From Telmatocola sphagniphila (GTDB lineage Bacteria; Planctomycetota; Planctomycetia; Gemmatales; Gemmataceae), in NCBI RefSeq assembly GCF_018398935.1, contig NZ_CP074694.1, positions 4,050,001 through 4,082,000 on the forward strand: a stretch of DNA of 32,000 bases. Reading direction: 5' to 3'. A program made the position numbers and the translations under genes. Within the stretch, counting starts at the first letter, position 1. Every line of letters starts with the position of its first letter. Below are positions 589 to 29,488 of this stretch, one piece after another. The notes beneath the pieces are model-generated. The model did not search any database. It had not been told where the DNA came from and worked only from the letters and a program-made list of their open reading frames with translations.

Positions 589-2748
589 ATGAGCGACGCC
601 GGGACTCTTCAAGATTCGTACCGCCACTGCTGGAGGGTGGTTCAACAGGCGCGGAGCAACTTTGGTTTTGCCTTTCTCATTCTCCCCCGATCGCAGCGCC
701 GGGCCATGCATGCGATTTATGCCTTCATGCGTATTACCGATGACATTGGGGACGATTCCGTCACAGCGGAAAAAGAATTGTCGTTGAACCTGTGGGAACA
801 GCAATTCGAAAGCATGCTGCGTGGGGAGTATCATCACCCGATCCACCCCGCCCTTCACGATACTCTGAAGCGTTATCCGGGTATCGATCCGCAGTGGTTC
901 CGAGAGGTATTTGCCGGAGTTCAATCCGATCTGGCCCCAAAAAGTTATTCCAGCCTGCAGGAGTTGAATCAGTACTGCTATCAGGTGGCCGGGGTTGTGG
1001 GTTTAATCTGCCTGCCGATCTGGGGTTGCGCTTCGAGATTCGCCTATCCACTGGCCATCGCCGCCGGGCAAGCATTTCAGCTGACGAATATCTTGCGGGA
1101 TCGCGATGAAGACCAGCGGAATCAACGTGTGTATTTCGATCCTTCGCGAATTGCTCTTGCGGATCTGGAGACACAAATCGAAGAGGATTATCGGAAAGCC
1201 CTGGGGTTGCTGCCGTTACTGCCACTACCCGGTCGAGCCATATTCGAAGTGATGTGGAACACCTATCATTCGATTTTTCTGAAGTTGAAATCGCGAAATT
1301 TTGAACCGGGATCAAGACCACGAATTTCGAAAACCCGCAAACTGGCGATTTTTGCCCGGGCACTGCCGACTCGATTGGGTTGGTCCATAGTCGTCCCGAA
1401 AGCTCAAAAAAAAGATCTCCTGAAACACCCTCCCCAACCCAAATCCGTGCTTGTGCTTGGCGGCGGCCTGGCGGGACTCTCCGCGGCCGTGAAACTTGCC
1501 AGCTCCGGCCATCAGGTCACCTTACTGGAATCGAAAAATCGGCTGGGGGGACGGGCGGGTTCTTTTCAGGATGCGATTAGCGGCCAGAAAATCGATGCCT
1601 GCCAGCACGTCACCTTGGGCTGCTGTACCGCCTTCGCCGAGTACTGTCGCATTACAGGAACCGAAGAGTTGCTCGAAAAGCAGAGCGAGCTCTATTTCCA
1701 GGCTTCCGATCGCCGCGTCGATATTTTTAGCGGGGATGCTCTTCCCGCGCCTTTTCATCTGGGCCGGGCCTTCCTGCGGTTGCGATTTCTGACAGCTCTG
1801 GAAAAGATCCAGGTAGCCTATGGGCTTTCGCATCTGGTCAGAAAGTCCGCACAGCAAGATCCTCCTTTTTTGCCCTGGCTAAAAGCGCATTATCAATCTC
1901 CAAGGACCATCGAAAGATTCTGGAACGTGGTTCTGGTCAGTGCGCTCAATATGCGTGTGGAAGAAGTCGGGCTGAAATATGCTCGCAAAGTCTTCCGGGA
2001 AGCCTTCTGGGTTAATCGGGAAGGACTGAATATCTCGCTCCCTAAAACATCACTCGATTCCCTCTACGGCGAGACGCTGCGTCATTGGTTCGATCGCCAC
2101 TCCGTTCGGCTGGAGTTGAATGCAGGAGTGCAGCAGATTTCATTCGACCGCTATCATCGAGCGACCTCAGTCACCCTGCATGATGGACGGCAGTTTGCAG
2201 CCGATGCAATCATTTCCGCATTACCCTTTGAAAGGCTCCTCGATCTCCTACCGCATGAACTCGTAGGTAATCAAATGAGCTCCGATCTGGCGAAACTGGA
2301 ATTCTCCCCGATCACCAGTGTTCATCTGTGGTTCGATCAATCGATCCTGCAGCGACCCCACGTTGCACTGGTCGATTGCCTCGGCCAGTGGATATTTAAT
2401 CGGGGGGAGAGTTCACCGGGTGAATACTATTTGCAAGTGGTAATTTCCGCGAGCAATCGCACCTTCCCCGGCAAAAGCAACGACGAGATCAAATCGGCGA
2501 TTCAGGAAGAATTGAAGCGTCTCTATCCCCTGACAGAGCGGGCGCGATTGCTTCGTTCTAGAGTTGTGACCGAACGCCGGGCGACCTTTGCCCCTGTTCC
2601 CGGCGTCGATCGACTAAGACCGGGACAGGATATCGGCTTTAAGAATTTTTTCTTGGCGGGAGATTACACTCAGACCGGTTGGCCAGCCACTATGGAAGGG
2701 GCCGTCCGCAGCGGTTTTCTCGCTGCGGCTCGGGTAGCTAGCAGCTGA
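589..2748 (+). CDS. Fusion protein: squalene/phytoene-synthase-fold domain (HpnC/HpnD type) plus FAD-dependent HpnE-like (hydroxysqualene oxidoreductase / amine-oxidase family) domain
   Basis: 719-aa ORF with ATG at 589. aa 1-~265 carry head-to-head prenyl synthase motifs: 'ARSNFGFAFLILP', Asp-rich 1 'FMRITDDIGDD' (nt 733-756), 'YCYQVAGVVGL', and Asp-rich 2 'NILRDRDEDQRNQRVYF' (nt 1087-1116). aa ~285-719 carry the FAD Rossmann motif 'VLVLGGGLAGLSAAVKLASSGHQVTLLESKNRLGGRA' (from nt 1441) and the C-terminal 'FFLAGDYTQTGWPATMEGAVRSG' typical of HpnE/phytoene-desaturase-type flavoenzymes. Confidence 0.85.
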   Translation: MSDAGTLQDSYRHCWRVVQQARSNFGFAFLILPRSQRRAMHAIYAFMRITDDIGDDSVTAEKELSLNLWEQQFESMLRGEYHHPIHPALHDTLKRYPGIDPQWFREVFAGVQSDLAPKSYSSLQELNQYCYQVAGVVGLICLPIWGCASRFAYPLAIAAGQAFQLTNILRDRDEDQRNQRVYFDPSRIALADLETQIEEDYRKALGLLPLLPLPGRAIFEVMWNTYHSIFLKLKSRNFEPGSRPRISKTRKLAIFARALPTRLGWSIVVPKAQKKDLLKHPPQPKSVLVLGGGLAGLSAAVKLASSGHQVTLLESKNRLGGRAGSFQDAISGQKIDACQHVTLGCCTAFAEYCRITGTEELLEKQSELYFQASDRRVDIFSGDALPAPFHLGRAFLRLRFLTALEKIQVAYGLSHLVRKSAQQDPPFLPWLKAHYQSPRTIERFWNVVLVSALNMRVEEVGLKYARKVFREAFWVNREGLNISLPKTSLDSLYGETLRHWFDRHSVRLELNAGVQQISFDRYHRATSVTLHDGRQFAADAIISALPFERLLDLLPHELVGNQMSSDLAKLEFSPITSVHLWFDQSILQRPHVALVDCLGQWIFNRGESSPGEYYLQVVISASNRTFPGKSNDEIKSAIQEELKRLYPLTERARLLRSRVVTERRATFAPVPGVDRLRPGQDIGFKNFFLAGDYTQTGWPATMEGAVRSGFLAAARVASS

Positions 2749-5700
2749 TCATTCCTGGGGCTTGATGGTAATCGCCAATGGATCGATCCAGGCTTTGTTA
2801 TCCGCGTTGTAGTAGAGATAAGCTCGGCTTGCGGGTCCCCGATAAACGCCCGGGGTTTCACAAACGAGATCAATCTTCAATTCCAGCTCTGCTTTGGGAG
2901 CCATTTCGCGCCAGTAGAGTACCAGTTCGCGACCGCGGATTTCAAAGTAACTGATCTTGTTCTCTTCCCTCAAGCGAGTGAGTTGCTTGAGATCGGTGGG
3001 AACTTTCGAACCGGCAGGGAGTCCCAGGATCGCCACCGACATGCCGTGCCCTTTATCGAGCTTGTTCTTCAACTTCATCGACATTTGAAGAGTGTCCCCC
3101 TCTTTCGCGACGGCTTTATCCAGACTCGTCTTCAATTCCAGGGCACACTCGTCCGAGCTCAAGGGCCTGGCCGTTCGACATTCCCAGGCGAGGGTATAGG
3201 GCAGCCCCTGTTTGGTATCGAGTTCCAGGCGAATATTTTTATTTTCGCCCTTGGTGAAGAGTTTTTCCGGGTCCATTACATCGAGTGTGATCACCTCGCG
3301 GTCAGCCGCACTAAAAACCTTTTCGGCGACTTTCTTGTCATTGACAAATAGAGTCAAAGTGCCCCCTTCGGGCATTTTCTTCTGGTCCTTCGTGTAGGCA
3401 ATCAGTGCTTTCAGAGCCAGGATGGTCGATTGTGTTGAACCAAAGCCGCCATAGCCGCCGCGTTGCCTCCCTAACCAGCGAATGGCCAACTGAATATTTT
3501 CGGTGAACAGTTCGGGACGGTTTGCCTTTAGCAAGGCCAGCACGGCCAAGCTGGTGGTTTCGATTTCGAGATCACGCCCCCCCGAGGAAGTGATGCTGGT
3601 GACCGCACCGGTAAATCGTCCGTCGGGCTTCAATTGTTTTTCCGTCGCTTTCTTCATCCAGGTAAGCCCGGCTTCGGTCTTACCGCGGTTGAACAATGCG
3701 TTGGCTAAGAGCGACAGGAAATACGGATCGTTCTCCGACTGAGCTTTCTTCTCGAGGGCTTCGAATTCCTTGCTGAGATCGATTTTCTCTTTGTTTTCGA
3801 GATCGCTCTCGGTGAGAGCCCAGACAATGTACGCATCCGTGACATGCTGGGGGGCTCGACCGAATGTATCGAGTGCTCGCTGATTGCGCTTGAAGCTGCC
3901 ATTGCCGTCGCGCTGACTCAGCAGGTAATCCCGGGTCCGCTTTATCATAAGGGGATCGACCTGCTGAACGTGAGACATATCGACGAACTGCAGGAGACCA
4001 TAAGCTGTCAAAGCTTCATGGGGAGGAGCAGTGCCGCCAAACCATTCGTAGCCCTGCCGTCCATCGTTGGTGACCTTCATGCATTCGAAGGAGGTCAGTT
4101 TCTGATAACCCCTTTCGAGCAGGTCCTTGGCTCGTTTGCTGACCTCCGGCTTGGCCTGATCGCTGGTCGACAAATAATCCAGGATCAGCGTATTCGGATA
4201 ATTGGAAGTCGAAGTTTGTTCGAAACATCCGCAGGGCTCCCGCAACAAGCCATCCAAGCCCGCTTGGAGATCGGCCAGTGTTGTCGGGAAGAGCTTCACC
4301 TGAACTTTCATGGTTCCAGGAAGAATGTCGCCAGGAACTTTAATCGTGGGTGTCGCCTTCTTATCCAAGAGATCGCTGACCTGACCGCTCACGGGAAAGC
4401 CATCCGGCACCACAGTCATGTGGCGGAGAATATGATCGCTGGGAGCGTCCAGACTGGTCGCATCCAGTTGCAGCGACAGGCTTCCGGAAGTCACTGCCGG
4501 TTTGAATGAATAGACTTTGCGATTCTTGCCATTGGCATCTAGAGCAATCGAATCGACCCAGCGGTCCCCTTCGCGTCTCAAGTCGCTCGGTAACAACTCC
4601 AGTCCTTGAGGATTCACCGAGAATTTGACTTCGCGCTGGGTGTCGGAATCGTTGACAATCCGAACAGGTACATCGACCTGATCCGCACTGGAAATTTCCA
4701 CGGGCAGTTTCGGATCGACGCTGAAAGGTTTGCGAGCTTCGATGGTGGAAACATTCGCGGCCACACGACCATCGAGTGTATGACCTGCCACCATCACCTG
4801 ATACCGTGTGACATCATCGGCGAGATCAAAATGTATAGTGATCTTACCGGTATCCGGGAGCACAATCACTGGGTTCCAATACACGGTCTCTGTAAAGTCA
4901 TTGCGCAGTTCGGGATTCGTCGCATCGGGCGTTTTCGTATGAGCATATTCGCGAACCACTAGGGCCCCGGGCATTACTTTTTGCATAGCGACGATTTGCC
5001 CGTTAACTTCCTCCCAAGCGGCCAGAAAATTCGCGGGAGCTGCTAACCCATTCGGACTGCGGAAGCCGCCTCCGCCTGGACCGCCAGCACCACCCCCGAT
5101 GTCAGGGAAGAAGCCACCACCACCCATCCCCGGCCCCGCGAAGCCGCCGGCCATGGGAGCTGCACCGGCTGCCATAACTTTCCGTTTACCGTCGAATTGT
5201 TCGCGATCCTTTGCCATGTCGCGATTTTTATCGAGATCTCCCGCCGGCTTCTGAGCCTGCTTCATCATCGCATTACGGGGCATCATGGGCCTGGCCATGT
5301 CCAGCTTCTTGGCATTATCGCCTCCTTTCAGGGCTTCCGGAGCGCCAACACCTTTATTCCCGCGGGCGATCATGGGAGCCATCCGCATTTCCGCTTTAGC
5401 AACCGGACCACCACCGAAACCTCCAAACCCGCCGCCTTGGGCGCCAGGAGCACCCCCAAAACCACCGCCGCCAAATTCCATCTTTTCCATCGGATTCATG
5501 GCAGCACCCGGCCTGAGTTCCGCTTCTTCCCGGAGCATCTGATCTAGATCGTCTTTGAAGATTCGAGCAGCTCCTATGGCCGCGGGTGCTGGCATCGTCG
5601 TCGCATCTCGAGAGAAATCGAGCGGTTTTTTGGTCACCTCGGAGCGATTCACGAGCAAGAAGGCGACTAGCGGAATCCCCGATAGTATTAATCCGACCCA

Positions 5701-8580
5701 GGCGTAGGACCCCAACGGCTGATGCTTGCGGATCCGACGAACCAGGGTAATGGTTACCACAAGCAGACCGGTTAAGAAAAGGATGATCTCGGCCACTTTC
5801 AAGGGCTCTTCGAGATCGACAGATGCCGGGGCGGCTCTCAATTCGCGCTCAGCGGCGAGATAAGAACTCTCGGCCTGAGTTTCTGAAGAACTCAGTTGCT
5901 GATATTCCTTCTGCGAGCGCATCTGAGCCAGGAAAGCATTCAAATCATTGCGGGATTTATTCAGTTTTGCCTGATAATCTTCTAACTTCGGCTGGTACTC
6001 CGCCAGGAATTTCTGCCGTTCTAGAAACAACAAATCCGAAGCGGGTTTGGTCACCTGACCCGTGCTGACCAGAAGTCGCTCGGCTTCCTGCTTCTCGGCG
6101 ACATTGCTCTTACTGGCCACGAAGGCCGTAGGGTTCTGCTCGGCAAAGCGGCGCCAGCCCTGAGTTCCGAGCAGATTATCCAGCGCCTTGGCCGCTTTGG
6201 GATGGTCGCTGAGCAGGAAGTCCGCATGCTCCAGATCTTCAGGTTTTTTGACTTCCCCCGCCAACAGGAAATGAGTCGGCATCAGACGATCGGTCTTGTT
6301 ATCCGCCATCGTGATCACACTCTGATTCACGACGCCGACCATCAGTACTGCGGGGAGCGGGGAATCTTTTTCGTTCTTACTGGAAATCTCCAGCCCCACT
6401 CGAGAGCCCGGGTTGTAGCGATTCTTATCGGGTTTAACATTCAGAATCAGATTGTTCGGGGTTTTGCGGAAGACCAGGCGCTCGGCCAAGGGAATCAGAT
6501 TGCTCTCGCCGTTGGCGGCAGTCAAGTCTTCAAACACGGTGACGCGAATCACTCCGCCGAGATTGACTCCACCGCCAAGTTCGATTTTAGTGGGCTTGTT
6601 CGGTTCAATATTCAGCAACTGATGATCGAGCAATTTGCCCCGGCCATAGGCCCCCACTACCAACCGGCGTTTCTCCCGAGGAGTTTGAATTTGCACGCGA
6701 ATTGGGGCATCCCCCGAAGTTACTTCGTCCAGGGCAGTTAACACGACGCCATCCGGTTTCACGGTGGGTAATACGAAACCGTCCTTCGGCTCTTCGATGT
6801 TCAGCGGGCGTTCGACCTTCAGGTAATATTTGACATTGGCCTGGGGCTTGAAAGTAAAGGAACCCTGGCCTCGGCTGACACCCGCTTCAGAGGTATCGGT
6901 CAAAGTCTGAACGTCCGCGATCTTATTTTTACCATCAGTGATGTAACCCTTCAGATCAGCCGGTTTGCCATAAGGCGTGCGGACCTGGAAGTAAACCCGA
7001 TTGTCCAGTTCGGCGATGAGATCGCCCCCTTCCGGATAGAAATCGACATTCAATTGCCGGCCAATAATCGGGATCGGCCGGGAGATGACCTCGGGACCCG
7101 TACCATCCATATAAGTGATGCTGAGAGTGCCCTGCCCAGATTTGATTTCCTTGGGCAGTGTGAACTTCAGGTTCACAACTCCCTTGTCATCGGTGGTCTT
7201 GGGGGCGTTGACAGGAACATTGACACCATCGACGATGGCGGAAACGAATATAGTCTGATTCTTCAGTGCGCCGCCTTCGGTACGGCTGGCTTCGGAGCGG
7301 ACCTGAACGATGTCTCCCGGGCCGTAGGATTTGCCATCGAATTCGAGCTTTTTGAAGAATTTATCAGGCACGTATCTGTTGACGATAAATTTTCGCTTTT
7401 CCAGTTCCTTGTAGTCATTCATGACGACCAGGGTGTACTCGCCGCCGGGAGCGCCTTCGGGAATGATCCATTCACCGACGCCGATGCCCCGAATCGGTGG
7501 GGAGTTAGCCAGTGCTATGGGCATTCCCTGTTCGTTGATCACTCGGCCATTACCGGCGGCGAGAAGCTGTTCCGATCCATCCGGCTTGACGACTTTGAAT
7601 CGTACCATCTGATCTTCGGGTGGCGGAATCAAAGTCGAACGCTCGAGTGTTAGACTTCGGAACCGGAGGGTCTCGCCGGGTTGGTAGAGAGGTTTATCCG
7701 TGGCGAGGTGGGTAATGAAAACCGGTCGGGCCAGCTTCAATTTTTCCACCAACTTCGCCCCGACATCATCTTTCATCTTGGCGGTGATTTCCAGCGTCAA
7801 TTCATCGCTGGGTTTCACATTTTTCCACGCCGATACCGGCAGTCGGAGAGTGGAGGTGGTGTCGGGATTCTGCAGGGAAACGCTGTAAATCTCTTTTTCG
7901 GCTTGATTGCGAATGACCAGACTGATCATGGCCGGGATCAGCGGTTGATTCGCGCGATCCAGCGTGGTGACTTTCCACTCGTTGGGCGCGCCGGGCATCG
8001 GCCGTTCCGGTCCACTGAGCTTGATGACGACTTTTCGAGAAGAGAGTTCTTCGACGAACTTCTTACCCTTTTCTTCAGCAGCCTGAGTCGTGGCCTCATA
8101 GCTCTTCTGGGCCAGGAGAATTTCTGCTTCCAGTTTGGTTCGTTCGTTCCGGAATCGATCGGCGTACTCCTGCCGTTTCTGCGCAGCGAGAGCAAACGAA
8201 TTCTTCAGGCTCGCGACTTCGGCGGCCTGACGATTTCGTTCGGCGGTCTGCTGATAATACGGAACGCCCACGACACCTGCGGCCGCGAGGAGGCTGGCCG
8301 CAATCAGGAAACGAAGGATTCGATGCGATTTGCGCGTCGGTACGCCGGGTTGAGCAGTGGCCAACTGCATTTCGGTGGGTGCCCGGAATTCGACGTTGGG
8401 GAATTCCTTGCTGGCCGCTTTGGTCAATTTGGCTTTCCAGGCTTCGGCCAATTTGATCAGTCGATCGCCATCCGGCCCTTGCAGGTAAGCCTCGAGTTCG
8501 GTCACCTGCTCCGGTTCCAGTAAGCCGTACTGATGATCGAGCATCAGAGCTTCGTAATACGCTTGATCGCGAGTCGTCAT
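2749..8580 (-). CDS. Membrane-anchored alpha-2-macroglobulin-family thioester protein with an N-terminal anti-sigma-like cytoplasmic domain (putative anti-sigma factor for the adjacent ECF sigma)
   Basis: One uninterrupted frame. The ORF-track start at 8616 is TTG; the first ATG is at 8580 (MTTRDQAYYEALMLDHQYGLLEPEQVTELEAYLQ...), giving 1,943 aa. TM1 is 'ILRFLIAASLLAAAGVVGV' (nt 8263-8319). MG-type segments: 'TDKPLYQPGETLRFRS', 'FYPEGGDLIAELDNRVYFQVRT'. A2M_N_2-like: 'VLMVGVVNQSVITMADN...LLGTQGWRRF'. A2M domain: 'DFTETVYWNPVIVLPDTGKITIHFDLADDVTRYQVMVAGHT'. Thioester site: 'PCGCFEQTS'. TED: 'GGYGGFGSTQSTILALKALIAY'. A C-terminal receptor-binding-like domain follows. Confidence 0.85.
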   Translation of the reverse strand: MTTRDQAYYEALMLDHQYGLLEPEQVTELEAYLQGPDGDRLIKLAEAWKAKLTKAASKEFPNVEFRAPTEMQLATAQPGVPTRKSHRILRFLIAASLLAAAGVVGVPYYQQTAERNRQAAEVASLKNSFALAAQKRQEYADRFRNERTKLEAEILLAQKSYEATTQAAEEKGKKFVEELSSRKVVIKLSGPERPMPGAPNEWKVTTLDRANQPLIPAMISLVIRNQAEKEIYSVSLQNPDTTSTLRLPVSAWKNVKPSDELTLEITAKMKDDVGAKLVEKLKLARPVFITHLATDKPLYQPGETLRFRSLTLERSTLIPPPEDQMVRFKVVKPDGSEQLLAAGNGRVINEQGMPIALANSPPIRGIGVGEWIIPEGAPGGEYTLVVMNDYKELEKRKFIVNRYVPDKFFKKLEFDGKSYGPGDIVQVRSEASRTEGGALKNQTIFVSAIVDGVNVPVNAPKTTDDKGVVNLKFTLPKEIKSGQGTLSITYMDGTGPEVISRPIPIIGRQLNVDFYPEGGDLIAELDNRVYFQVRTPYGKPADLKGYITDGKNKIADVQTLTDTSEAGVSRGQGSFTFKPQANVKYYLKVERPLNIEEPKDGFVLPTVKPDGVVLTALDEVTSGDAPIRVQIQTPREKRRLVVGAYGRGKLLDHQLLNIEPNKPTKIELGGGVNLGGVIRVTVFEDLTAANGESNLIPLAERLVFRKTPNNLILNVKPDKNRYNPGSRVGLEISSKNEKDSPLPAVLMVGVVNQSVITMADNKTDRLMPTHFLLAGEVKKPEDLEHADFLLSDHPKAAKALDNLLGTQGWRRFAEQNPTAFVASKSNVAEKQEAERLLVSTGQVTKPASDLLFLERQKFLAEYQPKLEDYQAKLNKSRNDLNAFLAQMRSQKEYQQLSSSETQAESSYLAAERELRAAPASVDLEEPLKVAEIILFLTGLLVVTITLVRRIRKHQPLGSYAWVGLILSGIPLVAFLLVNRSEVTKKPLDFSRDATTMPAPAAIGAARIFKDDLDQMLREEAELRPGAAMNPMEKMEFGGGGFGGAPGAQGGGFGGFGGGPVAKAEMRMAPMIARGNKGVGAPEALKGGDNAKKLDMARPMMPRNAMMKQAQKPAGDLDKNRDMAKDREQFDGKRKVMAAGAAPMAGGFAGPGMGGGGFFPDIGGGAGGPGGGGFRSPNGLAAPANFLAAWEEVNGQIVAMQKVMPGALVVREYAHTKTPDATNPELRNDFTETVYWNPVIVLPDTGKITIHFDLADDVTRYQVMVAGHTLDGRVAANVSTIEARKPFSVDPKLPVEISSADQVDVPVRIVNDSDTQREVKFSVNPQGLELLPSDLRREGDRWVDSIALDANGKNRKVYSFKPAVTSGSLSLQLDATSLDAPSDHILRHMTVVPDGFPVSGQVSDLLDKKATPTIKVPGDILPGTMKVQVKLFPTTLADLQAGLDGLLREPCGCFEQTSTSNYPNTLILDYLSTSDQAKPEVSKRAKDLLERGYQKLTSFECMKVTNDGRQGYEWFGGTAPPHEALTAYGLLQFVDMSHVQQVDPLMIKRTRDYLLSQRDGNGSFKRNQRALDTFGRAPQHVTDAYIVWALTESDLENKEKIDLSKEFEALEKKAQSENDPYFLSLLANALFNRGKTEAGLTWMKKATEKQLKPDGRFTGAVTSITSSGGRDLEIETTSLAVLALLKANRPELFTENIQLAIRWLGRQRGGYGGFGSTQSTILALKALIAYTKDQKKMPEGGTLTLFVNDKKVAEKVFSAADREVITLDVMDPEKLFTKGENKNIRLELDTKQGLPYTLAWECRTARPLSSDECALELKTSLDKAVAKEGDTLQMSMKLKNKLDKGHGMSVAILGLPAGSKVPTDLKQLTRLREENKISYFEIRGRELVLYWREMAPKAELELKIDLVCETPGVYRGPASRAYLYYNADNKAWIDPLAITIKPQE
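4216..4233 (-). other. Thioester-type CxEQ motif (CGCFEQ) inside the A2M-family CDS
   Basis: The plus-strand text ttgttcgaaacatccgca reverse-complements to TGC GGA TGT TTC GAA CAA = C-G-C-F-E-Q. It is in frame with the 2749..8580 CDS, with the CxEQ Cys at aa ~1452 counted from the ATG at 8580. The context 'LLREPCGCFEQTSTSNYPN' matches the thioester loop of A2M/complement-family proteins. Confidence 0.7.
5047..5481 (-). other. Gly/Met/Ala-rich low-complexity (probably disordered) tract inside the A2M-family CDS
   Basis: 'MEFGGGGFGGAPGAQGGGFGGFGGGPVAKAEMRMAPMIARG...MARPMMPRNAMMKQAQKP...AGGFAGPGMGGGGFFPDIGGGAGGPGGGGFRSPNG'. Composition is visibly biased (GGF/GGG repeats, Met clusters). It lies just before the A2M domain. 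Confidence 0.7.
5650..5796 (-). other. Predicted two-helix transmembrane hairpin inside the A2M-family CDS
   Basis: 'VAEIILFLTGLLVVTITLV' (nt 5740-5796), basic loop 'RRIRKHQPLGSY' (nt 5704-5739), then 'AWVGLILSGIPLVAFLLV' (nt 5650-5703). Two hydrophobic stretches of 18-19 aa are separated by a positively charged loop. Confidence 0.65.
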
Positions 8581-8649
8581 GATCGCACCCGTTTCAAAGT
8601 TTGAACCGCATCTCAACCGGGAATGCCGGGAGTCGCGGAAGGTATCTCG

Positions 8650-9207
8650 TTACGCCAGTTTCTGTCGGAGTTTCTGCAATGCGGATCGCATTTGCGTTTT
8701 CACAGTTCCGACTGGGCTGGATCGGATTTCAGCGATTTGCTCGTAGGTCAATCCGCCGTTTTGCCGAAGCAGGAAGACTTCTTTTTCTTCCTCCCGCAAA
8801 CCGAGGATGGCCTGACGGAGCAATTCCAGATCTTCCTGATCCTCTAGCGGTTGTCCTGGGCCGATGTCGCGTCCCATAATCATGGTTTCGTCCCCTGCGA
8901 TGGCCCGGGAGCGACGCTTCCAGGCGGAACGCTGATAATCCTTGGCGGCGTTGAGTCCTACGCGAAATATCCATGCTCGGATATTCTGCACATCCGTTAA
9001 ACTCGCTCTCGCCCGCCAACACTTCAAAAAGGCTTCCTGTGTCGCGTCGAAGGCGTCTTCCCGGTTCCCCAACACATACACCAGCGTACTGACGAGTTCA
9101 TCGCGAATCGTATTAAACGTGCAAACCAATAGCTCCTCGCTGGCAATAGGCGGGTTTCCACCGCTTGCCGCGCTAGCATCTTTTGGAGCAGCACGCACAG
9201 TTTCCAT
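8650..9207 (-). CDS. ECF-type RNA polymerase sigma-70 family factor
   Basis: Region 2: 'DATQEAFLKCWRARASLTDVQNIRAWIFRVGLNAAKDYQRS'. Region 4 HTH: 'LREEEKEVFLLRQNGGLTYEQIAEIRSSPVGTVKTQMRSALQKLRQKL'. The ORF-track start at 9219 is GTG. The ATG at 9207 has GGTGGA 7 nt upstream, so it is preferred. Confidence 0.9.
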   Translation of the reverse strand: METVRAAPKDASAASGGNPPIASEELLVCTFNTIRDELVSTLVYVLGNREDAFDATQEAFLKCWRARASLTDVQNIRAWIFRVGLNAAKDYQRSAWKRRSRAIAGDETMIMGRDIGPGQPLEDQEDLELLRQAILGLREEEKEVFLLRQNGGLTYEQIAEIRSSPVGTVKTQMRSALQKLRQKLA

Positions 9208-9324
9208 GTTGGGTTCCACCTAAATGACGAAGGGAGTTTCGCTAGGGATTGTGCTATTGGAAATTATTTGAAGAAAAGAGGAAACTCACCAACAGCGACC
9301 AGGAAAGCTAGATAATACTAAAAA

Positions 9325-9352
9325 ATTGAAGAAAATATGCCGAACGTGTCAA
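9325..9352 (-). promoter_or_regulatory. Candidate sigma-70-type promoter upstream of the ECF sigma / anti-sigma pair
   Basis: The minus strand reads TTGACA (9352-9347), a 16-nt spacer, then TTCAAT (9330-9325), about 120 nt upstream of the sigma ATG and 33 nt after the TolC-like stop. The -35 is perfect and the -10 matches 4/6. The promoter consensus for this lineage is unknown to me. Confidence 0.25.
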
Positions 9353-9384
9353 TTTATATTCCGACAGGATTTTTTGTAACGAAG

Positions 9385-10953
9385 TTATCGCAGGCCGGAG
9401 AGAAGGGTATCTATCGGATGCCCCAACGCCCGATAAAGTCGGAATTGAGCTCGATTATAATCGGCTATGGCCGCCTGATAATCGCTATTGGCCTGAGCCA
9501 TGGCTTGCATGGAAGCGACCACTTCCTGAGGTCGAACGATCAATGTCAGCAGATTACCGACACGTCGAGTTTGGGTCATCGCCTCAATGTTTTTAGCGAG
9601 CAATTCGCGCGCCTCGTCGTAGGCGGGTTCCGCCACTAACAGTCGTTCTGCGGCCGACGTCACGGAGGCATAGGCCTGGATCACCTCGGCGGCCACGCGA
9701 TCCTGAATTCGAAATAGTTCCAGAAGGGCTATTTCGTGTTCCGTGCGCTTTTCCTTGATGCGGACGTAGTTACCGAGTCCGAGATTCTGCAACTCCCAGA
9801 TCACCTGGATGTCATAATCGAAGCGACCGCTCATACTACCGAAGTTCCCAGCACTACCCGCTGAGAAACTTCCGACCGCCAGGGAACCACTCGGGTTTGT
9901 GGAAACGCTGCGAAAGGCCAGGCTGGGAATCAAGGGCCGCATTTTTTCCTGCCGCAATCGATCCAGAGTGGCTTGCACCAGAGCCTGCTGACTGGCGAGT
10001 TCCGGTCGATTGGTTAGAGCAATAGGAATTAGCTCATCCACGGAATACTTCGGATCGATCAACCGAATTTTCAGATTCGAGGGTTCACTGGGCATCAACG
10101 GCTGAGTGGGACTGATTCGCATCAATCGCGTCAGATCGGCTTGGGAATACAGATAACGTTCACGAGTAGTACTGGCCGCCTGCTTACGCCGGGAGAGTTC
10201 GACTTTCGCCCGGTTGGTTTCCACCGCTGGAACCAGACCTTCCGCCAGGGCACCTACCTGCCGGACCAGCTCTTCTCCTTGAATAATCAGCATCTGGTCG
10301 GTCGCTAACTCGCCGGCGTACTGCAAAAGGGTGAAATAGGCTTCTATCACACTCAGGGAGAGATCGTTATTGATTGCCAGTTTGATCGATTCGCGCGCTC
10401 GCAATTCGCGCCGAGCCGCTATCGGAGCGTAGATCGCATCGGTTATTCCGAACACCGCATTCCAGCCCACGCCATACATAAAGCTCTGCCGATTATTCAT
10501 CAGCAAGGAGCCATCCGCCCCTTGAGTTGCCCCACTATGGTAAAAATAATCAGTCCCGGCATTGATGTTGGGTAACCAGAGAAGGCGGGTCTTCTGATAT
10601 TCCGCATTGGCCAGATCGATGGCCCGATCGGCCTGCAAAGCATCGATACCCTGCCGATTGGCAATCAACACGGCTTCCGTAAGCGTGATCGGCCGATAGT
10701 TCGGGTTTGCGGTCAGAGACACCAGCGGATTCGGCCGGACCGACGGTATCAGTTTTTTCGTTTCGGGCTCGCCGGGAGTGGGTGCGGCCGATTTATTTTC
10801 TTCCGTGAAAAGGGGAATCGCGACCTGGAAACTGGTTCGACGAAGGGATTCCGGTTTTGCGGAGAGGTTAGCAGATGGTTCCTGAGCGGACCCAGCACTT
10901 GAAAGAAAGCCCAGCACTAATCCGATACCCAGACAGGTACATCGCAACGGCAT
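9385..10953 (-). CDS. TolC-family outer membrane efflux protein (OEP)
   Basis: Two-repeat OEP architecture: 'LTEAVLIANRQGIDALQADRAIDLANAEYQKTRLLWLPNINAGTDYFY' and a second repeat 'LIPIALTNRPELASQQALVQATLDRLRQEK...', ending 'AIADYNRAQFRLYRALG'. The preferred start is the internal ATG at 10953 (MPLRCTCLGIGLVLGFLSSAGSAQEP), which gives a signal peptide. The ORF-track extension to 11079 has no such feature. Confidence 0.85.
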   Translation of the reverse strand: MPLRCTCLGIGLVLGFLSSAGSAQEPSANLSAKPESLRRTSFQVAIPLFTEENKSAAPTPGEPETKKLIPSVRPNPLVSLTANPNYRPITLTEAVLIANRQGIDALQADRAIDLANAEYQKTRLLWLPNINAGTDYFYHSGATQGADGSLLMNNRQSFMYGVGWNAVFGITDAIYAPIAARRELRARESIKLAINNDLSLSVIEAYFTLLQYAGELATDQMLIIQGEELVRQVGALAEGLVPAVETNRAKVELSRRKQAASTTRERYLYSQADLTRLMRISPTQPLMPSEPSNLKIRLIDPKYSVDELIPIALTNRPELASQQALVQATLDRLRQEKMRPLIPSLAFRSVSTNPSGSLAVGSFSAGSAGNFGSMSGRFDYDIQVIWELQNLGLGNYVRIKEKRTEHEIALLELFRIQDRVAAEVIQAYASVTSAAERLLVAEPAYDEARELLAKNIEAMTQTRRVGNLLTLIVRPQEVVASMQAMAQANSDYQAAIADYNRAQFRLYRALGHPIDTLLSGLR

Positions 10954-11354
10954 TTGAACTACCTGAAACCAGTCGATGCTCGGCAGGGACGCTTCCGTTT
11001 CTCTATCGGCTACTTTCCTCGGGGGAATGAGATCAAAGTTCCGGCTGTAGCGAACGTAACAATCGGGCAAACCTGGCACCCTGAGTAAATGGGGAAAGCA
11101 GTCCCCTTTGGAACTATTTGAACTCGGCAGCAGTCGCTAACCGCCGAGTGGCTTCCCCAGACTACCAAAATCGGGGGTTGTGGGAACTTACGCCTAAAAA
11201 CAATCTCGTTTTTCAAAAAATGAGTGATGAAGTTGCTTCGAAGCTTCTCCAACCTGGGAAAGTCGGCATTGCATAAACTTTAAATGTTTGGTTATATGTG
11301 GCCCATTCGGGGCTCCGGAGGCAGCCCCGTGGATGGCTTGGGAAGGATTCCCGA

Positions 11355-21020: not shown

Positions 21021-21323
21021 ATGGCTCGCATGAGTCGAGAATTTTCATTGGTCCTGCTCGGCGCCGGTGTCATGACGGCGGGCTACTTTCTTTATCCCGA
21101 ACCTGCTTTGGATGCCAGCGAGAAGCAGCAAGAGGACGCCGAACTCGCCCAGAATGGCGTCGATTCCAATACATCGAGTGGCGGCGGCTCCCACAGCCAC
21201 TTTTTCTGGTACCACACCGGTTATGGTTACGGGAGCGGTTCCCGCTCCTCCTTCTCGAGTGCCAGTAGTGCAGTTCGCTCCGGCGGGTTCGGCAGTTTCG
21301 GTCGTGGCGCTGCTGGAGCCTAA
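21021..21323 (+). CDS. Small membrane-anchored Gly/Ser/Tyr-rich protein, YgiB/YjfM (DUF1190)-like
   Basis: Preferred start is the ATG at 21021 (MARMSREFSLVLLGAGVMTAGYFLY: basic N-terminus plus one TM helix), giving 100 aa. The tail is 'SSGGGSHSHFFWYHTGYGYGSGSRSSFSSASSAVRSGGFGSFGRGAAGA'. The 'RSGGFG' element (nt 21273-21293) resembles the C-terminal RGGFG element of E. coli YgiB/YjfM as I recall it. It lies 34 nt upstream of a YgiC-type gene, the same order as ygiB-ygiC. Confidence 0.55.
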   Translation: MARMSREFSLVLLGAGVMTAGYFLYPEPALDASEKQQEDAELAQNGVDSNTSSGGGSHSHFFWYHTGYGYGSGSRSSFSSASSAVRSGGFGSFGRGAAGA

Positions 21324-21357
21324 CTCTACCGTCTCTTCCTCTTCCTGGCACTTCGTC

Positions 21358-22482
21358 ATGCACCGCATCAAAATCGATCCTCGGCCCGACTGGCAGAAAC
21401 GAGTCGAAAAATACGGCTTGCACTACCATACTCTGCGCGGCGAACCCTATTGGGACGAATCCGCCGCGTATCAGTTCACCGCCTTCGAAGTCGACACCCT
21501 GGAAGCTGCCACCAACGAACTGCACGAAATGTGCATGAATCTGGTCCAGGAAGTCATCGACGAGCGAATGTTCGGGCTATTCCTCATCCCCAAAGAATTC
21601 GAAGATTACATTATCCAGTCCTGGGAAGCGGAAGAGCCCTCGATCTATGGACGGTTCGACTTGGCGTACGATGGCGTCCATCCTCCGGTGATGCTGGAAT
21701 ACAACGCCGATACTCCCACGGCCCTGGTCGAGGCTTCTGTTGCCCAATGGTACTGGCTGAAGGATATCGATGAACGGGGCGATCAGTTCAACAGCATCCA
21801 CGAAAAGCTCCTGGATGCCTGGCGGTCCGTGCTCGAAAAAGACGATTCGCGGATTCACTTCGCAGCCATGTCGGATGCCATGGAGGATTACATTACCGTC
21901 GAGTATCTGCGCGATACCGCCATTCAGGCAGGCTTTGATACGGAATACATCAACGTCGAGGCGATTGCCTGGAACTCCCTGTCGAATCGGTTCGTCGATA
22001 CAAAGATGCGGAATATCCAGCGAATCTTCAAACTCTATCCCTGGGAATGGCTGATACGCGAGGAATTCGGCAAGAATATCCTCCGCAACCAGACCCACTG
22101 GATCGAACCCGCCTGGAAAATGATTCTCAGCAACAAGGCAATTCTCCCTTTGCTGCACGAACGGCACCCTGATTGTCCTTATCTGGTACCAGCTTCGTTT
22201 CAGCCGCTCACGGGAGAGTACGTCCGTAAACCGTTGCAATCTCGGGAAGGCGCGAACGTCACGATCTTCCGGGGCGATACCGTTCAGCGTTCCACGGAAG
22301 GAGTTTATGGCGAAGGACCGTTCGTCTATCAACAATTAATTCCAATCAAGCCGCACGACGATCGTTATCCGGTGATTGGAAGTTGGGTGGTTAACGGTGT
22401 ATCCTGCGGCATTGGCATACGCGAGGATGACTCTCCGATTACCCAGAATACCAGCCGATTCGTGCCGCACCAGATGGTGTGA
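21358..22482 (+). CDS. Glutathionylspermidine-synthase-like ATP-grasp ligase, YgiC/YjfC family
   Basis: Start at the ATG at 21358 (MHRIKIDPRPDWQKRVEKYGLHYHTLRGEPYWDESAAY), 374 aa. Near-collinear blocks with E. coli YgiC as I recall it: 'PSIYGRFDLAYDG', 'LEYNADTPTAL', 'DQFNSIHEKL', 'FKLYPWEW', 'WIEPAWKMILSNKAILPLL', 'VRKPLQSREGANV', 'IGSWVVNGVSCGIGIRED'. Confidence 0.9.
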   Translation: MHRIKIDPRPDWQKRVEKYGLHYHTLRGEPYWDESAAYQFTAFEVDTLEAATNELHEMCMNLVQEVIDERMFGLFLIPKEFEDYIIQSWEAEEPSIYGRFDLAYDGVHPPVMLEYNADTPTALVEASVAQWYWLKDIDERGDQFNSIHEKLLDAWRSVLEKDDSRIHFAAMSDAMEDYITVEYLRDTAIQAGFDTEYINVEAIAWNSLSNRFVDTKMRNIQRIFKLYPWEWLIREEFGKNILRNQTHWIEPAWKMILSNKAILPLLHERHPDCPYLVPASFQPLTGEYVRKPLQSREGANVTIFRGDTVQRSTEGVYGEGPFVYQQLIPIKPHDDRYPVIGSWVVNGVSCGIGIREDDSPITQNTSRFVPHQMV

Positions 22483-25610: not shown

Positions 25611-27056
25611 ATGCCGGGAGCCTGCATGAAAGTCCTTTCTGCTGTGACATTGCCCCGCCGAATATTTCTCTCCGCATGCTTCAGTGTGATCGCCGGTCTC
25701 GTACCGACACCCATTCAGGCTCAGAATAACGCCAATCGACCGCTCTTTCCACAGACGGGGACGAATCCCCGCCGGACGGCGTGTGTGGAAGTCGCCGAAA
25801 AATGTCGCGGGGCGGTCGTGAACATCCACAGTGAACGCACCATCAGTGCCGCCACTCGAGACCAGTTCTACGAACAGGTTCAATCTTCGCAACGCGTCAA
25901 CGGCATGGGAACGGGCATTGTCATCGACCCGCGCGGCTATGTGATCACCAATCACCATGTGGTGGACGATGTCCAACTGCTGCGAGTTCGCCTGACCGAT
26001 GGCTCCAACCTGCTGGCTCGGGTTGTCGCTCGCGATCCCGAAAACGATCTGGCTCTGCTGAAAATCGATCCGGCGAAACCGCTCCCCACGATTCCGCTGG
26101 GCACGGCCACCGACCTGATGGATGGTGAACCGGTCATCGCCATTGGTAACGCCTTCGGCTATGAGCACACTATTACCACAGGTATCGTCAGTGCTCAGAA
26201 GCGTAACGTCAGCCTGAATAAAGAAGTCTCCTATCGCAATCTGATCCAGACCGATGCCAGCATCAACCCCGGCAACTCCGGCGGACCTTTGTTGAACGTC
26301 TACGGCGAGTTGATCGGCGTGAACGTCGCCATTCGCGCCGGGGCGCAGGGAATTGGCTTCACGATCCCGGTCGACCAGATGATCAATGCCGCGTCGGATA
26401 TGATCAGCCTGCGTCGCCGTACGGGGATCATTCACGGCCTGGGTATTCGCAATATGTTGGATGCGTCTCAGAATCCGATTCGTCGCTGGGCCCTGGTGGA
26501 TCGCTGCGATGCCAAGTTCCCGGGCGCCGAAGCGGGCCTGCAGATCGGAGATGTCATCGATCGCGTCGGCGAATTCGAAGTGAAAACGAATCTCGACTTC
26601 GAACGGGCTCTCATCGATATCCGAAATGGCGAAAAGCTGGTCGTCCTAGGCCGACGGGGTGTGAATGCCAAGGGGGAAGGCGGCGCCGAGTTCAAGTTGG
26701 AACTCGTTCTGAAGCCTACTAATTCGGTCAACGCCACGGCAGTTTCCAATAGCGATATCGTCTGGAAGAAATTGGGCATTCGAGTTCAACCGGCCAATGT
26801 CGAAACGGTGACCAAAGTGAACGCTCAACTGCACGGCGGCATGACGATTCTCGAAGTGAATACCAATAGCCCAGCCGCCAAGGCCGGATTGCAACGAGGC
26901 GATATTCTCATCGGCCTGCATCAGTGGGAAACGATCACCTCGGAGAACATTCAATTCGTGCTGACCCACCCGGACCTGAATAGTTTTACACCCTTGCGAT
27001 ATCACCTAATTCGCAACGGCAAATTGCAGCCCGGCTGGTTTGGCACGATTGATTAG
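25611..27056 (+). CDS. HtrA/DegP-family periplasmic serine protease (S1C) with two PDZ domains
   Basis: Catalytic triad contexts: 'YVITNHHVV' (His), 'ENDLALLKI' (Asp), 'TDASINPGNSGGPLLN' (Ser). PDZ-like segments: 'GLQIGDVIDRVGEFEV' and 'GLQRGDILIGLHQWE'. N-terminal signal-like 'MKVLSAVTLPRRIFLSACFSVIAGLV'. Alternative start ATG at 25626. Confidence 0.9.
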   Translation: MPGACMKVLSAVTLPRRIFLSACFSVIAGLVPTPIQAQNNANRPLFPQTGTNPRRTACVEVAEKCRGAVVNIHSERTISAATRDQFYEQVQSSQRVNGMGTGIVIDPRGYVITNHHVVDDVQLLRVRLTDGSNLLARVVARDPENDLALLKIDPAKPLPTIPLGTATDLMDGEPVIAIGNAFGYEHTITTGIVSAQKRNVSLNKEVSYRNLIQTDASINPGNSGGPLLNVYGELIGVNVAIRAGAQGIGFTIPVDQMINAASDMISLRRRTGIIHGLGIRNMLDASQNPIRRWALVDRCDAKFPGAEAGLQIGDVIDRVGEFEVKTNLDFERALIDIRNGEKLVVLGRRGVNAKGEGGAEFKLELVLKPTNSVNATAVSNSDIVWKKLGIRVQPANVETVTKVNAQLHGGMTILEVNTNSPAAKAGLQRGDILIGLHQWETITSENIQFVLTHPDLNSFTPLRYHLIRNGKLQPGWFGTID

Positions 27057-28582: not shown

Positions 28583-29488
28583 ATGCGGGGGATAGGATAC
28601 AGCCTTTTAGCGGCGGTCGGCGCCTGGGCGTTCTGGCCCACTCTTCGCGATCTCGCGGAGAAGTGGCAGCACGATCCGCAGTATTCTCACGGGCTGCTGG
28701 TCCCCTTTTTCGTCGCTTATCTAATTCATCGTAAGCGGGAAGACCTCAAACAAATTTCGGCGGTACCCTCCTGGCCTCTAAGTCTGTTATTTCTCTCCAC
28801 TGCGTTAGGGTGCCGGGCAACATCGGCGATTTTCGATTTTCTGCCTCTCGATGGTTTGGCCCTAATTCTTGTTCTGGCCGGTGCTGTGAGTCTGATTCAA
28901 GGAAAAGAGATGCTGAAGACCGTTGCACCGGCTCTCGGATTTCTCTTGTTCGCATTGCCGCTGCCGTACAGCATGGAACGCTGGCTCAGCCAGGATTTAC
29001 AGCATCTGGCGACTCTCGCCAGCACCTATCTGCTCCAGGCGATCGGGCAGCCGGCGATCAATGAAGGCAATGTGATTCTCATCGATGAAATTAAGCTCGG
29101 CATTGTCGAAGCCTGCTCCGGCCTGCGCATGCTGATGACTTTCGCGGCCTTCGCGACGGGAATCACTCTGCTGATCGATCGGAGCTGGGCAACCAAGACC
29201 GTTTTAATTCTTAGCGCAATTCCGATCGCCCTGATCGTCAACGTATTACGGATCTCGGCAACCGGCCTGGCCTACGTACTGCTGCGGGAAGCTCCCGAAC
29301 GGCAGAACATGCTGGGTTTCATTCACGACTTTAATGGCTGGATGATGATGCCGGTCGCTCTGGTCCTGTTCGGGATTGAATTGAAAGTATTGCAATGGTT
29401 GCTCGTCGAGCCAGAGAAACTGGAACGGGTGATTTCGTTTCCGATTCGGCGTGAGATGCCAGAAGTACCGGCTCGAAAAGCCGCCTAA
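28583..29488 (+). CDS. Exosortase (EpsH/Xrt family transpeptidase)
   Basis: 'FWPTLRDLAEKWQHDPQYSHGLLVPF'; a polytopic membrane core; the catalytic Cys context 'VEACSGLRMLMTF' (Cys178, nt 29114-29116); conserved Arg 'IVNVLRI'; conserved His 'FIHDFNGW'. Confidence 0.9.
   Translation: MRGIGYSLLAAVGAWAFWPTLRDLAEKWQHDPQYSHGLLVPFFVAYLIHRKREDLKQISAVPSWPLSLLFLSTALGCRATSAIFDFLPLDGLALILVLAGAVSLIQGKEMLKTVAPALGFLLFALPLPYSMERWLSQDLQHLATLASTYLLQAIGQPAINEGNVILIDEIKLGIVEACSGLRMLMTFAAFATGITLLIDRSWATKTVLILSAIPIALIVNVLRISATGLAYVLLREAPERQNMLGFIHDFNGWMMMPVALVLFGIELKVLQWLLVEPEKLERVISFPIRREMPEVPARKAA

Follow-up and report, generated by a model that had tools for sequence, protein, structure and literature searches.

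In a 32,000-nucleotide window of the Telmatocola sphagniphila genome (contig NZ_CP074694.1, positions 4,050,001 to 4,082,000; "the window" means this whole stretch, in whose coordinates all features are given), two genes on the minus strand follow one another. The first encodes an extracytoplasmic function (ECF) sigma factor (8650..9207). Beyond a 69-nt intergenic spacer (8581..8649, minus strand), the second encodes a protein of 1,943 aa plus stop (2749..8580), in which the open reading frame, Pfam matches and homologues place a candidate anti-sigma domain (ASD) in front of an alpha-2-macroglobulin (A2M)/complement C3-like thioester body. The coordinates, lengths, spacing and domain list that a sequence-only reading of this DNA had given were all correct. 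The sigma gene starts at ATG 9207 and encodes a 185-aa group 4 sigma-70 factor consisting of Sigma70_r2 (aa 34-97) and Sigma70_r4_2 (aa 128-180), in keeping with the ~160-220 aa and the sigma2 and sigma4 regions alone that define an ECF factor. It passes the generic ECF model TIGR02937 (81.7 bits, cut-off 42.9) and reaches the cut-off of none of the specific ECF families in NCBIfam (53.9 versus 124.55 bits for TIGR02989). The large open reading frame, 1,955 codons and far above chance expectation, runs from ATG 8580 to a stop at 2749-2751, and NCBI lists a T. sphagniphila (Gemmataceae, Planctomycetota) entry with 100% identity to its product under the name 'alpha-2-macroglobulin'. An ASD-bearing gene 69 nt downstream of the sigma gene is what is expected of an adjacent cognate regulator; no terminator-like hairpin was found in the 69-nt spacer, and the two genes are probably co-transcribed. 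They also share one reading frame (8581-8652, minus strand), with a single TAA and 23 sense codons between them, so that read-through would yield a fusion protein; because spacer lengths at orthologous loci show no in-frame bias, the shared frame is probably due to chance.

The evidence for an anti-sigma function lies at the N-terminus of the large protein. By hidden Markov model (HMM) searches, AlphaFold2 (AF2) modelling and alignment, aa 1-60 (8401..8580, minus strand, as are all further features of this gene) form a putative class-I ASD of the zinc-binding anti-sigma (ZAS) lineage whose zinc ligands have been lost. AF2 predicts three helices at aa 6-17, 23-33 and 38-59 (pLDDT 75-91) and no distinct fourth one; the helical bundle is followed by a transmembrane (TM) helix, TM1, at aa 88-106, the order typical of ASDs, and a conserved motif, AAxxEFPxVxFxxP, stands after the helices at aa 55-68. 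The sequence-only reading had described a class-I anti-sigma layout lacking the HxxxCxxC motif, and both parts of that description stand. An unambiguous alignment with zinc-bearing orthologues shows all three ligand positions replaced (H32->Y, C36->G, C39->G), which places the protein outside the ZAS subclass proper, and an HMM built from HxxxCxxC-bearing orthologues alone matches the window N-terminus at E 3e-13. Comparison with anti-sigma models, which had been proposed as a check, gave a divided answer: Pfam zf-HC2 matched 12 of 12 zinc versions scanned and has no direct match in the window protein, but the orthologue HMM recovers it, and the profile of the ASD family matches RslA (3HUG_B, E 6.4e-6), RsrA (1.4e-3) and RsiW. 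Homology to the class-I ASD/zf-HC2 group is thus given by the orthologue HMM and the family profile together.

The substitutions at the ligand positions and the silence of zf-HC2 raise the question of whether the window domain is a decayed relic that no longer binds sigma, its adjacency reflecting co-expression alone. Mixed groups of zinc and non-zinc class-I ASDs, as well as functional zinc-independent ASDs (RseA, RskA), are documented (PMC7406223), and the loss of the motif is therefore not evidence of decay. Furthermore, the zinc-less form is a conserved clade, making up 41 of the 120 homologues analyzed (the best 120 of 238 found at E<=1e-5 in a word-indexed search), with strongly conserved helices and a sigma gene upstream in 13 of the 14 zinc-less loci that could be assessed; HxxxCxxC is retained in 27 of 42 orthologous genome loci. 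We regard the relic explanation as highly improbable. A search with aa 1-130 against 1.84 billion representative proteins returned 69 matches, and all eight of the intermediate-length ones that were checked (553-1,433 aa) bear MG2 or A2M; among the matches examined, this ASD subtype appears to be confined to MG2/A2M-bearing bodies. The top match of that search, P0121 (4,982 aa), aligned in 10 stretches, most likely through Ala/Glu/Lys-rich coiled-coil similarity and not through homology. Sequence comparison thus strongly supports the N-terminal domain as a zinc-less descendant of a ZAS class-I ASD, and the two window genes very probably stand in a sigma/anti-sigma relationship.

The remainder of the protein is an A2M/C3-like thioester body. 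Pfam matches MG2 (aa 291-390), A2M (aa 1232-1320) and TED_complement (aa 1427-1729, E 6.5e-35), with weak, sub-threshold matches to A2M_BRD and bMG10, and the predicted fold agrees, so that the expected recovery of A2M and thioester domain (TED) models was borne out; no NCBIfam model matches the large protein, and PADLOC defence models gave no match. From the N-terminal side, Foldseek, Pfam MG2 and the weak A2M_BRD match outline a ring of macroglobulin (MG) domains MG1-MG6 and a helical segment ending in the invariant GTQGWRRF (aa 184-815; 6136..8031). MG6-alpha/MG7, corresponding to Pfam A2M, and the first half of a CUB domain follow at aa 1209-1426 (4303..4956; Pfam, AF2/Foldseek), then the TED, an alpha/alpha toroid supported by TED_complement and AF2 helices (aa 1427-1729; 3394..4302), and finally the second half of CUB with an MG8/receptor-binding-like domain (aa 1730-1943; 2752..3393), seen in the weak bMG10 match and in AF2 with Foldseek. 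Sequence and alignment place a thioester motif, CFEQ, within GCFEQTS in the TED (aa 1452-1455; 4216..4227); GCFEQTS is invariant in a 27-sequence alignment and CxEQ is present at the equivalent position in 120 of 120 homologues. The protein thus has the MG1-MG6 ring, the MG7-CUB-TED-MG8 half and the CxEQ of the TED that characterize A2M, C3 and TEP proteins, the thioester itself being predicted from the motif.

Structure prediction was carried out on the two halves of the body. The AF2 model of aa 1-1010 (pLDDT 78.5) contains beta-sandwich domains over aa 184-735, and Foldseek aligned this N-terminal half with the C3, C5 and C4 beta chains (E 4e-26, target TM-score 0.57, ~650 aligned columns). 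The model of aa 1190-1943 (pLDDT 83.6) matched the native C3 alpha chain, native A2ML1, CD109, TEP1 and A2M (E 2e-38, query TM-score (TMq) 0.67), compared with a TMq of only 0.33 for the rearranged C3b conformers. Because native C3 is matched better than C3b, the body is predicted to be in its latent state, with one half equivalent to the C3 beta chain and the other to the alpha chain.

We also analyzed how the protein is arranged in the membrane. The sequence-only reading had counted a single TM helix; this was wrong, as there are three hydrophobic segments (aa 88-106, 929-947 and 959-977) with hydropathy means of 2.2-2.5 (19-residue Kyte-Doolittle). TM1 (aa 88-106; 8263..8319; hydropathy 2.24) is continued by a long periplasmic stalk helix (aa 107-181; 8038..8262; AF2), TM1 and stalk together being predicted as one continuous helix over aa 89-181, and the model suggests that the stalk holds the MG ring above the membrane. 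After the ring, a variable, coiled-coil-like helical segment directed toward the membrane (aa 816-925; 5806..6135; conservation 0.42) has AF2-predicted helices at aa 850-888 and 891-916 that lead into a hairpin of TM2, the cytoplasmic loop RRIRKHQPLGS and TM3 (aa 929-977; 5650..5796; hydropathy). Of the 87 homologues in which the insert could be delimited, 86 have two TM segments there, and the net charge of the loop averages +2.6. Basic residues before TM1 and the basic TM2-TM3 loop, read by the positive-inside rule, strongly support a topology in which the ASD is cytoplasmic, TM1 leads out, aa 107-928 are periplasmic, TM2 leads in and TM3 out again, and aa 978-1943 are periplasmic.

TM3 is followed by a disordered periplasmic tail, identified from composition and conservation, that is hypervariable and rich in Gly, Ala, Met and Pro (aa 978-1208; 4957..5649). 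In homologues the tail is 118-301 aa long and Ala/Gly/Pro-rich, and it is the least conserved segment of the protein, with a mean majority-residue fraction of 0.24 versus 0.68-0.70 in the MG and TED blocks. Its aa ~1030-1200 (4957-5500) contain repeated Gly-Phe runs of the GGGFGG/GGFGG type, which recur just ahead of the VREYAH motif in further homologues from Gemmataceae, L013 among them. Helical segment, hairpin and tail together make up a ~400-aa insert that separates the two halves of the A2M body. Phmmer alignments to PDB sequences resume at aa ~1223, equivalent to human A2M 729, C3 763 and CD109 705, in each case immediately past the bait or anaphylatoxin (ANA) region, which strongly supports the insert as occupying exactly the bait/ANA (activation) position. 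Thus, the complete A2M architecture that the sequence-only reading had claimed holds for MG1-6, MG7, CUB, TED, MG8 and CFEQ; the position of the bait is kept, and ~400 aa with a TM hairpin and a 230-aa tail stand there in place of a short region. Relatives from Sumerlaeia and Phycisphaerae have a short insert of 150-190 aa without the hairpin, which suggests that the hairpin arose within the Planctomycetia.

Compared with known thioester proteins, the window protein shares with C3/C4, A2M, A2ML1, CD109 and TEP1 the MG1-6, MG7, CUB, CxEQ-bearing TED and MG8 domains, the native (latent) predicted conformation and a variable region between the MG6 halves. In contrast to them, it has three TM helices and a ~400-aa activation region with a hairpin, lacks ANA and C345c, and is fused to a putative sigma-sequestering domain. 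Like ECAM/YfhM and SaA2M, it is predicted to be periplasmic, anchored in the inner membrane, thioester-bearing and of the monomeric type, and shares with them a presumed role in defence against proteases that breach the outer membrane. However, it is anchored by TM helices and has no lipobox, its N-terminus being an ASD followed by a TM helix; no Pbp1C gene neighbours it as in ECAM/YfhM, its flanks being a SQS_PSY/amine-oxidase fusion and a TolC-like OEP gene; the link to a sigma factor is a feature of the window family alone; and the ECAM/YfhM and SaA2M structures are absent from its PDB sequence matches. MagD/YfaS, the thioester-less protein of the six-gene mag operon, has a periplasmic MG-domain A2M scaffold in common with the window protein, which differs in its invariant thioester motif and in its two-gene cassette without mag-like partners. 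The absence of a lipobox, of a Pbp1C neighbour and of ECAM/SaA2M among the sequence matches shows that the window protein is not of the ECAM/YfhM type, and the presence of the thioester motif that it is not of the MagD type.

These similarities bear on what the thioester might react with. In one alternative the protein acts by C3/TEP-like tagging, its thioester, once activated, covalently marking a surface or molecule (competitor or prey material, for instance, or the cell's own envelope) and the sigma factor reporting the contact or tagging. This would fit the best sequence and fold matches, which are CD109, A2ML1, TEP1, C3 and C4, with no ECAM/SaA2M-type structure among the PDB phmmer matches at E<=0.01, and it would fit the exact correspondence of the two halves to the C3 beta and alpha chains. 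The protein lacks C345c and ANA domains, however, tagging would call for a dedicated convertase, of which no gene is linked to the locus, and the hypervariable, exposed tail is better suited to a bait of broad specificity. We consider tagging improbable.

Whether the sigma gene and the A2M body belong together was addressed from both sides, with 78 loci selected by the A2M protein from 185,579 species genomes and 80 metagenome loci selected by the sigma factor alone. The homologues analyzed measure 1,650-2,060 aa, and their sources are, with few exceptions, Gemmataceae or further members of the Planctomycetota; within the Planctomycetia the cassette has a wide distribution that takes in both Gemmatales and Pirellulales. 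By their N-termini the 120 homologues fall into five classes: ZAS with HxxxCxxC present (13), zinc-less ZAS, the same domain with the zinc ligands gone and the type of the window protein (41), type B with a different N-terminus beginning MTPESPIIAELxPLLDALCEE... (34), type E containing GRFVPQ (5), and proteins with only a short N-terminus before TM1 (27). An orthologue of the window sigma lies directly upstream on the same strand in 40 of the 41 ZAS-type A2M loci whose upstream DNA was long enough (phmmer 1e-44 to 1e-73); in the exception, L057, it is 646 nt away. None of 15 A2M loci without an ASD has an adjacent sigma gene. Conversely, an ASD was found 6-214 nt downstream in 69 of 71 sigma-selected loci with at least 250 nt of downstream DNA, and where that DNA exceeded 1.2 kb (41 loci), 39 encode an ASD together with an A2M-homologous body and one an A2M body without a detected ASD. 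The conservation of sigma-A2M adjacency that the sequence-only reading had asked about is therefore found in both directions, in 40/41 and 69/71 loci.

A different pairing was seen in the type-B class, which includes P0044 and P0104. At 3 of 3 type-B loci (L005, L043, L047) the A2M gene is accompanied by a different ECF sigma gene that overlaps it by 4 nt, as in L005:4868-5452 and 5413-11115; the N-terminus of the class reads MTPESPIIAELxPLLDALCEExITPEQ... The type-B sigma passes TIGR02989 (147 versus 124.55 bits) and the type-B N-terminus gives weak matches to NCBIfam anti-sigma models; apparently, the same A2M body has been coupled to a second, independent sigma/anti-sigma type. The type-E proteins (L044, L045; P0094, P0096, P0106, P0114) have ~100 cytoplasmic residues with the pattern …ELTDDDAxRLxYEALxRDGRFVPQ(T/S)PEEVAxAEAE…, and for them we found no Pfam hit, no adjacent sigma gene and no promoter motif. 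Automatic annotation has glimpsed the fusion, as the Joint Genome Institute (JGI) name of one homologue is 'anti-sigma-K factor RskA'.

To characterize transcription of the cassette we analyzed 59 unique sigma upstream regions after re-estimating start codons. A promoter-like dyad of ECF type lies upstream of the window sigma gene (9226..9255, minus strand), with -35 CAATC at 9251-9247, a 17-nt spacer and -10 CGTC at 9229-9226; the -10 ends 18 nt before ATG 9207, and because this gap contains GGTGGA, ATG 9207 is favoured over GTG 9219 as the sigma start. The exact dyad CAATC-N17-CGTC occurs in 22 of the 59 regions, always 29-46 nt before the start, compared with 1 on the reverse complement and an average of 0.045 in shuffles; the relaxed form [ACG]AA[AT]C-N16-18-CGTC occurs in 28 of 59 versus 1 in the control. 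It emerged once the starts had been re-estimated and the 80 sigma-selected loci added, crude starts having given no shared dyad. An AAC-type -35 combined with a CGTC -10, as here, is the layout classically seen at ECF promoters; patterns of the canonical GGAAC-N-CGT kind showed no enrichment in the sigma upstream regions. A position weight matrix (PWM) of the dyad, scanned across the fetched loci (1.43 Mb in total), gave 139 hits scoring 12 bits or more; 85 of them lay just upstream of sigma orthologues, as did most other strong plus-strand hits. Further dyad or PWM matches within the window (25783, 31375, 6565, 9787 and elsewhere) lack a half-site or are intragenic and were dismissed as chance.

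The motif was also present upstream of A2M paralogues that carry no ASD. CAA[TA]C-N17-CGTCGGAAGT is found 105-237 nt before the start in 11 of the 11 such paralogues with upstream DNA (L006, L007, L040 and L159-L166; two are identical and none was used in the PWM model); in the controls it was absent from the reverse complement of all 11 and present in 8.6% of 300-nt windows drawn at random. It was not found in type-B, type-E, myxobacterial or Phycisphaerae relatives. From these patterns we infer that the sigma factor is autoregulated and that its regulon includes a membrane-stapled A2M paralogue without an ASD. A T4_deiodinase/AhpC-TSA gene is divergently oriented next to the paralogue in L162, L164 and L166. 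A Candidatus Sumerlaeia metagenome-assembled genome, of another phylum, contains a 22.6-bit match to the sigma promoter PWM (CAATCCGT…GGTC; L060:5816-5849) 74 nt upstream of a 1,409-aa homologue that has neither hairpin nor ASD. A second element, TCTCCTTG(C)CC paired with GTTAC, was not adopted, as the full dyad was present in four related loci alone. The 7-mer core [AT]CTCC[CT]T of (A/T)CTCCTTG(C)CC occurs in 11 of 46 sigma upstream regions and in none on the reverse complement (loci include L009, L028, L029, L061, L070, L075 and L078, and four have GTTAC 18 nt after it), and may be an alternative promoter or leader element.

In its regulatory layout the cassette thus resembles SigL-RslA (PDB 3HUG), SigW-RsiW and RpoE-RseA: the sigma factor consists of sigma2 and sigma4 only, the anti-sigma gene lies immediately downstream, a cytoplasmic helical ASD at the N-terminus is followed by a TM helix, and a candidate autoregulatory promoter of the AAC/CGTC type precedes the operon. 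It differs from them in that the extracytoplasmic part is a ~1,840-aa thioester protein that re-enters the membrane twice, and in an ASD without zinc ligands that has three helices plus EFPxVxFxxP and no clear fourth helix. The testable defining features of both ECF/class-I anti-sigma pairs and A2M/C3 thioester proteins are therefore present in one locus.

The surroundings of the cassette vary among loci. In the window, a 719-aa fusion of SQS_PSY (squalene/phytoene synthase) and flavin amine oxidase (589-2748, plus strand) is convergent with the A2M gene, the two stops abutting with zero intergenic bases, and a TolC-like OEP gene (9385-11079, minus strand) lies just upstream of the sigma gene. 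Farther away on the plus strand are genes for a glutathionylspermidine-synthase-like protein (21112-22482), an HtrA/DegP-like protease with trypsin and PDZ domains (25611-27056), 16 kb from the cassette, and an exosortase (EpsH; 28583-29488); the window yielded no tRNA genes. The HtrA-like, EpsH, glutathionylspermidine-synthase-like and TolC-like OEP genes are not conserved neighbours of the cassette, which is a self-contained two-gene unit.

The HtrA-like gene is relevant to a more conventional explanation, in which the locus encodes an ordinary envelope-stress ECF pair, the A2M body being a mere effector, a protease trap anchored in the membrane that carries the ASD by happenstance, and sigma being released not through activation of this body but by a generic signal, such as misfolded proteins of the envelope, through a DegS/RseP-type cascade. 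The best-known way of inactivating membrane class-I anti-sigmas is regulated intramembrane proteolysis (RIP) initiated by unrelated site-1 proteases, no geometric path leads from a cut in the tail to TM1, and a protease of suitable type is encoded 16 kb away, at 25611-27056. However, that gene is not conserved as a neighbour, the sigma clade and the A2M body are paired one-to-one across the phylum and in both directions, a second anti-sigma-like N-terminal type has been recruited to the same body, and the regulon appears to hold a further A2M paralogue. Together, these four observations argue that body and signalling are functionally coupled, and we consider the effector-only explanation unlikely, if still deserving of serious attention.

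The reading we prefer is that of an ECF cassette whose anti-sigma sensor is a complement/A2M-type thioester protein that is sprung by a protease and thereby frees the sigma factor; in its entirety, we see the balance for and against it as even. In A2M and C3, rearrangement and thioester exposure are universally set off by a cut in the bait or ANA region, and site-1/site-2 proteolysis is a common means of inactivating class-I anti-sigmas of the membrane (RseA, RsiW); the protease-triggered steps below are modelled on these two precedents. At rest, the anti-sigma::A2M protein would hold sigma at the membrane. A foreign protease entering the periplasm would cut the exposed tail, which would spring the MG/TED rearrangement as in A2M and C3, and the exposed thioester would capture the attacker. 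The spent, rearranged molecule would then be degraded, probably by RIP of TM1, and the freed sigma would transcribe its own operon, replacing the single-use sensor, together with the ASD-less effector paralogue. Since A2Ms are single-use, such a coupling of consumption to resynthesis would be sensible. The rearrangement might expose a site-1 site in the stalk, or the bundle of three TM helices might transmit the change. By analogy, either protease cleavage or thioester activation could be what triggers the release of sigma; that proteolysis is the signal falls slightly short of an even chance in our estimation. The most detailed version, a single-use sensor in which tail cleavage or thioester activation is relayed through the TM hairpin and the TM1 stalk, with sigma resynthesising the sensor and inducing the ASD-less effector paralogue, is tentative and, taken in all its parts, rather doubtful.

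Several observations weigh against the preferred reading. Its weakest step is the link from activation to the release of sigma: a cut after TM3 leaves the periplasmic part attached to TM1 at full length, and a classical site-1/site-2 cascade would accordingly need an extra step. The tail is Gly-rich in places, which many proteases cut poorly, and the ligand might not be a protease at all, because in structure the protein comes nearest to C3, CD109 and TEP and not to proven bacterial traps. A survey of neighbours within 4 kb at 44 loci found no conserved third gene, be it a protease, a site-2 protease (S2P) or Pbp1C. On the side of transcription, about half of the sigma upstream regions have no dyad by the criteria used, the dyad of the window scores 13.6 bits with the PWM, among the lower values in the training set, and the evidence for the ASD-less paralogue as a regulon member comes from the 11 fetched loci.

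The claim of the sequence-only reading that such a device had not been described is consistent with the literature searched, which did not extend to ECF group supplements. We found no description of a sigma-A2M anti-sigma in the searchable literature, which does not cover these supplements or two planctomycete ECF surveys, and no curated family or mechanistic account of a sigma-linked A2M fusion in the literature searched. Macroglobulin, MG2, thioester and A2M go unmentioned in the main text of the ECF re-classification published in 2021 (Casas-Pastor 2021). An automated listing of MG2, A2M or TED domains in the context of some ECF group is possible. A preprint on a 'CAGE complex' mentions A2M and Planctomycetes and concerns an unrelated protein. 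We rate as new both ECF signalling with a mechanistically explicit sensor and the membrane topology of this A2M/C3 fold, whose stapling to the membrane had previously gone unnoticed.

Bacterial A2Ms are regarded as passive periplasmic traps, and the sensor domains of ECF anti-sigmas are usually small or poorly understood. A sensor with a well-understood, irreversible activation, comprising bait cleavage, rearrangement and thioester exposure, would provide a concrete and testable input for an ECF system, and with a predicted promoter and a predicted member of the regulon, reporter experiments can be designed directly. If the proposed mechanism is true, it would be the first link between the activation of a thioester protein and gene regulation, and these bacteria would possess a self-replenishing defence circuit, triggered by proteases or by targets, in which A2M/C3 chemistry is wired directly to transcription. 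The conservation of the pairing across the phylum suggests that genes are switched on in these bacteria when the molecular trap springs.

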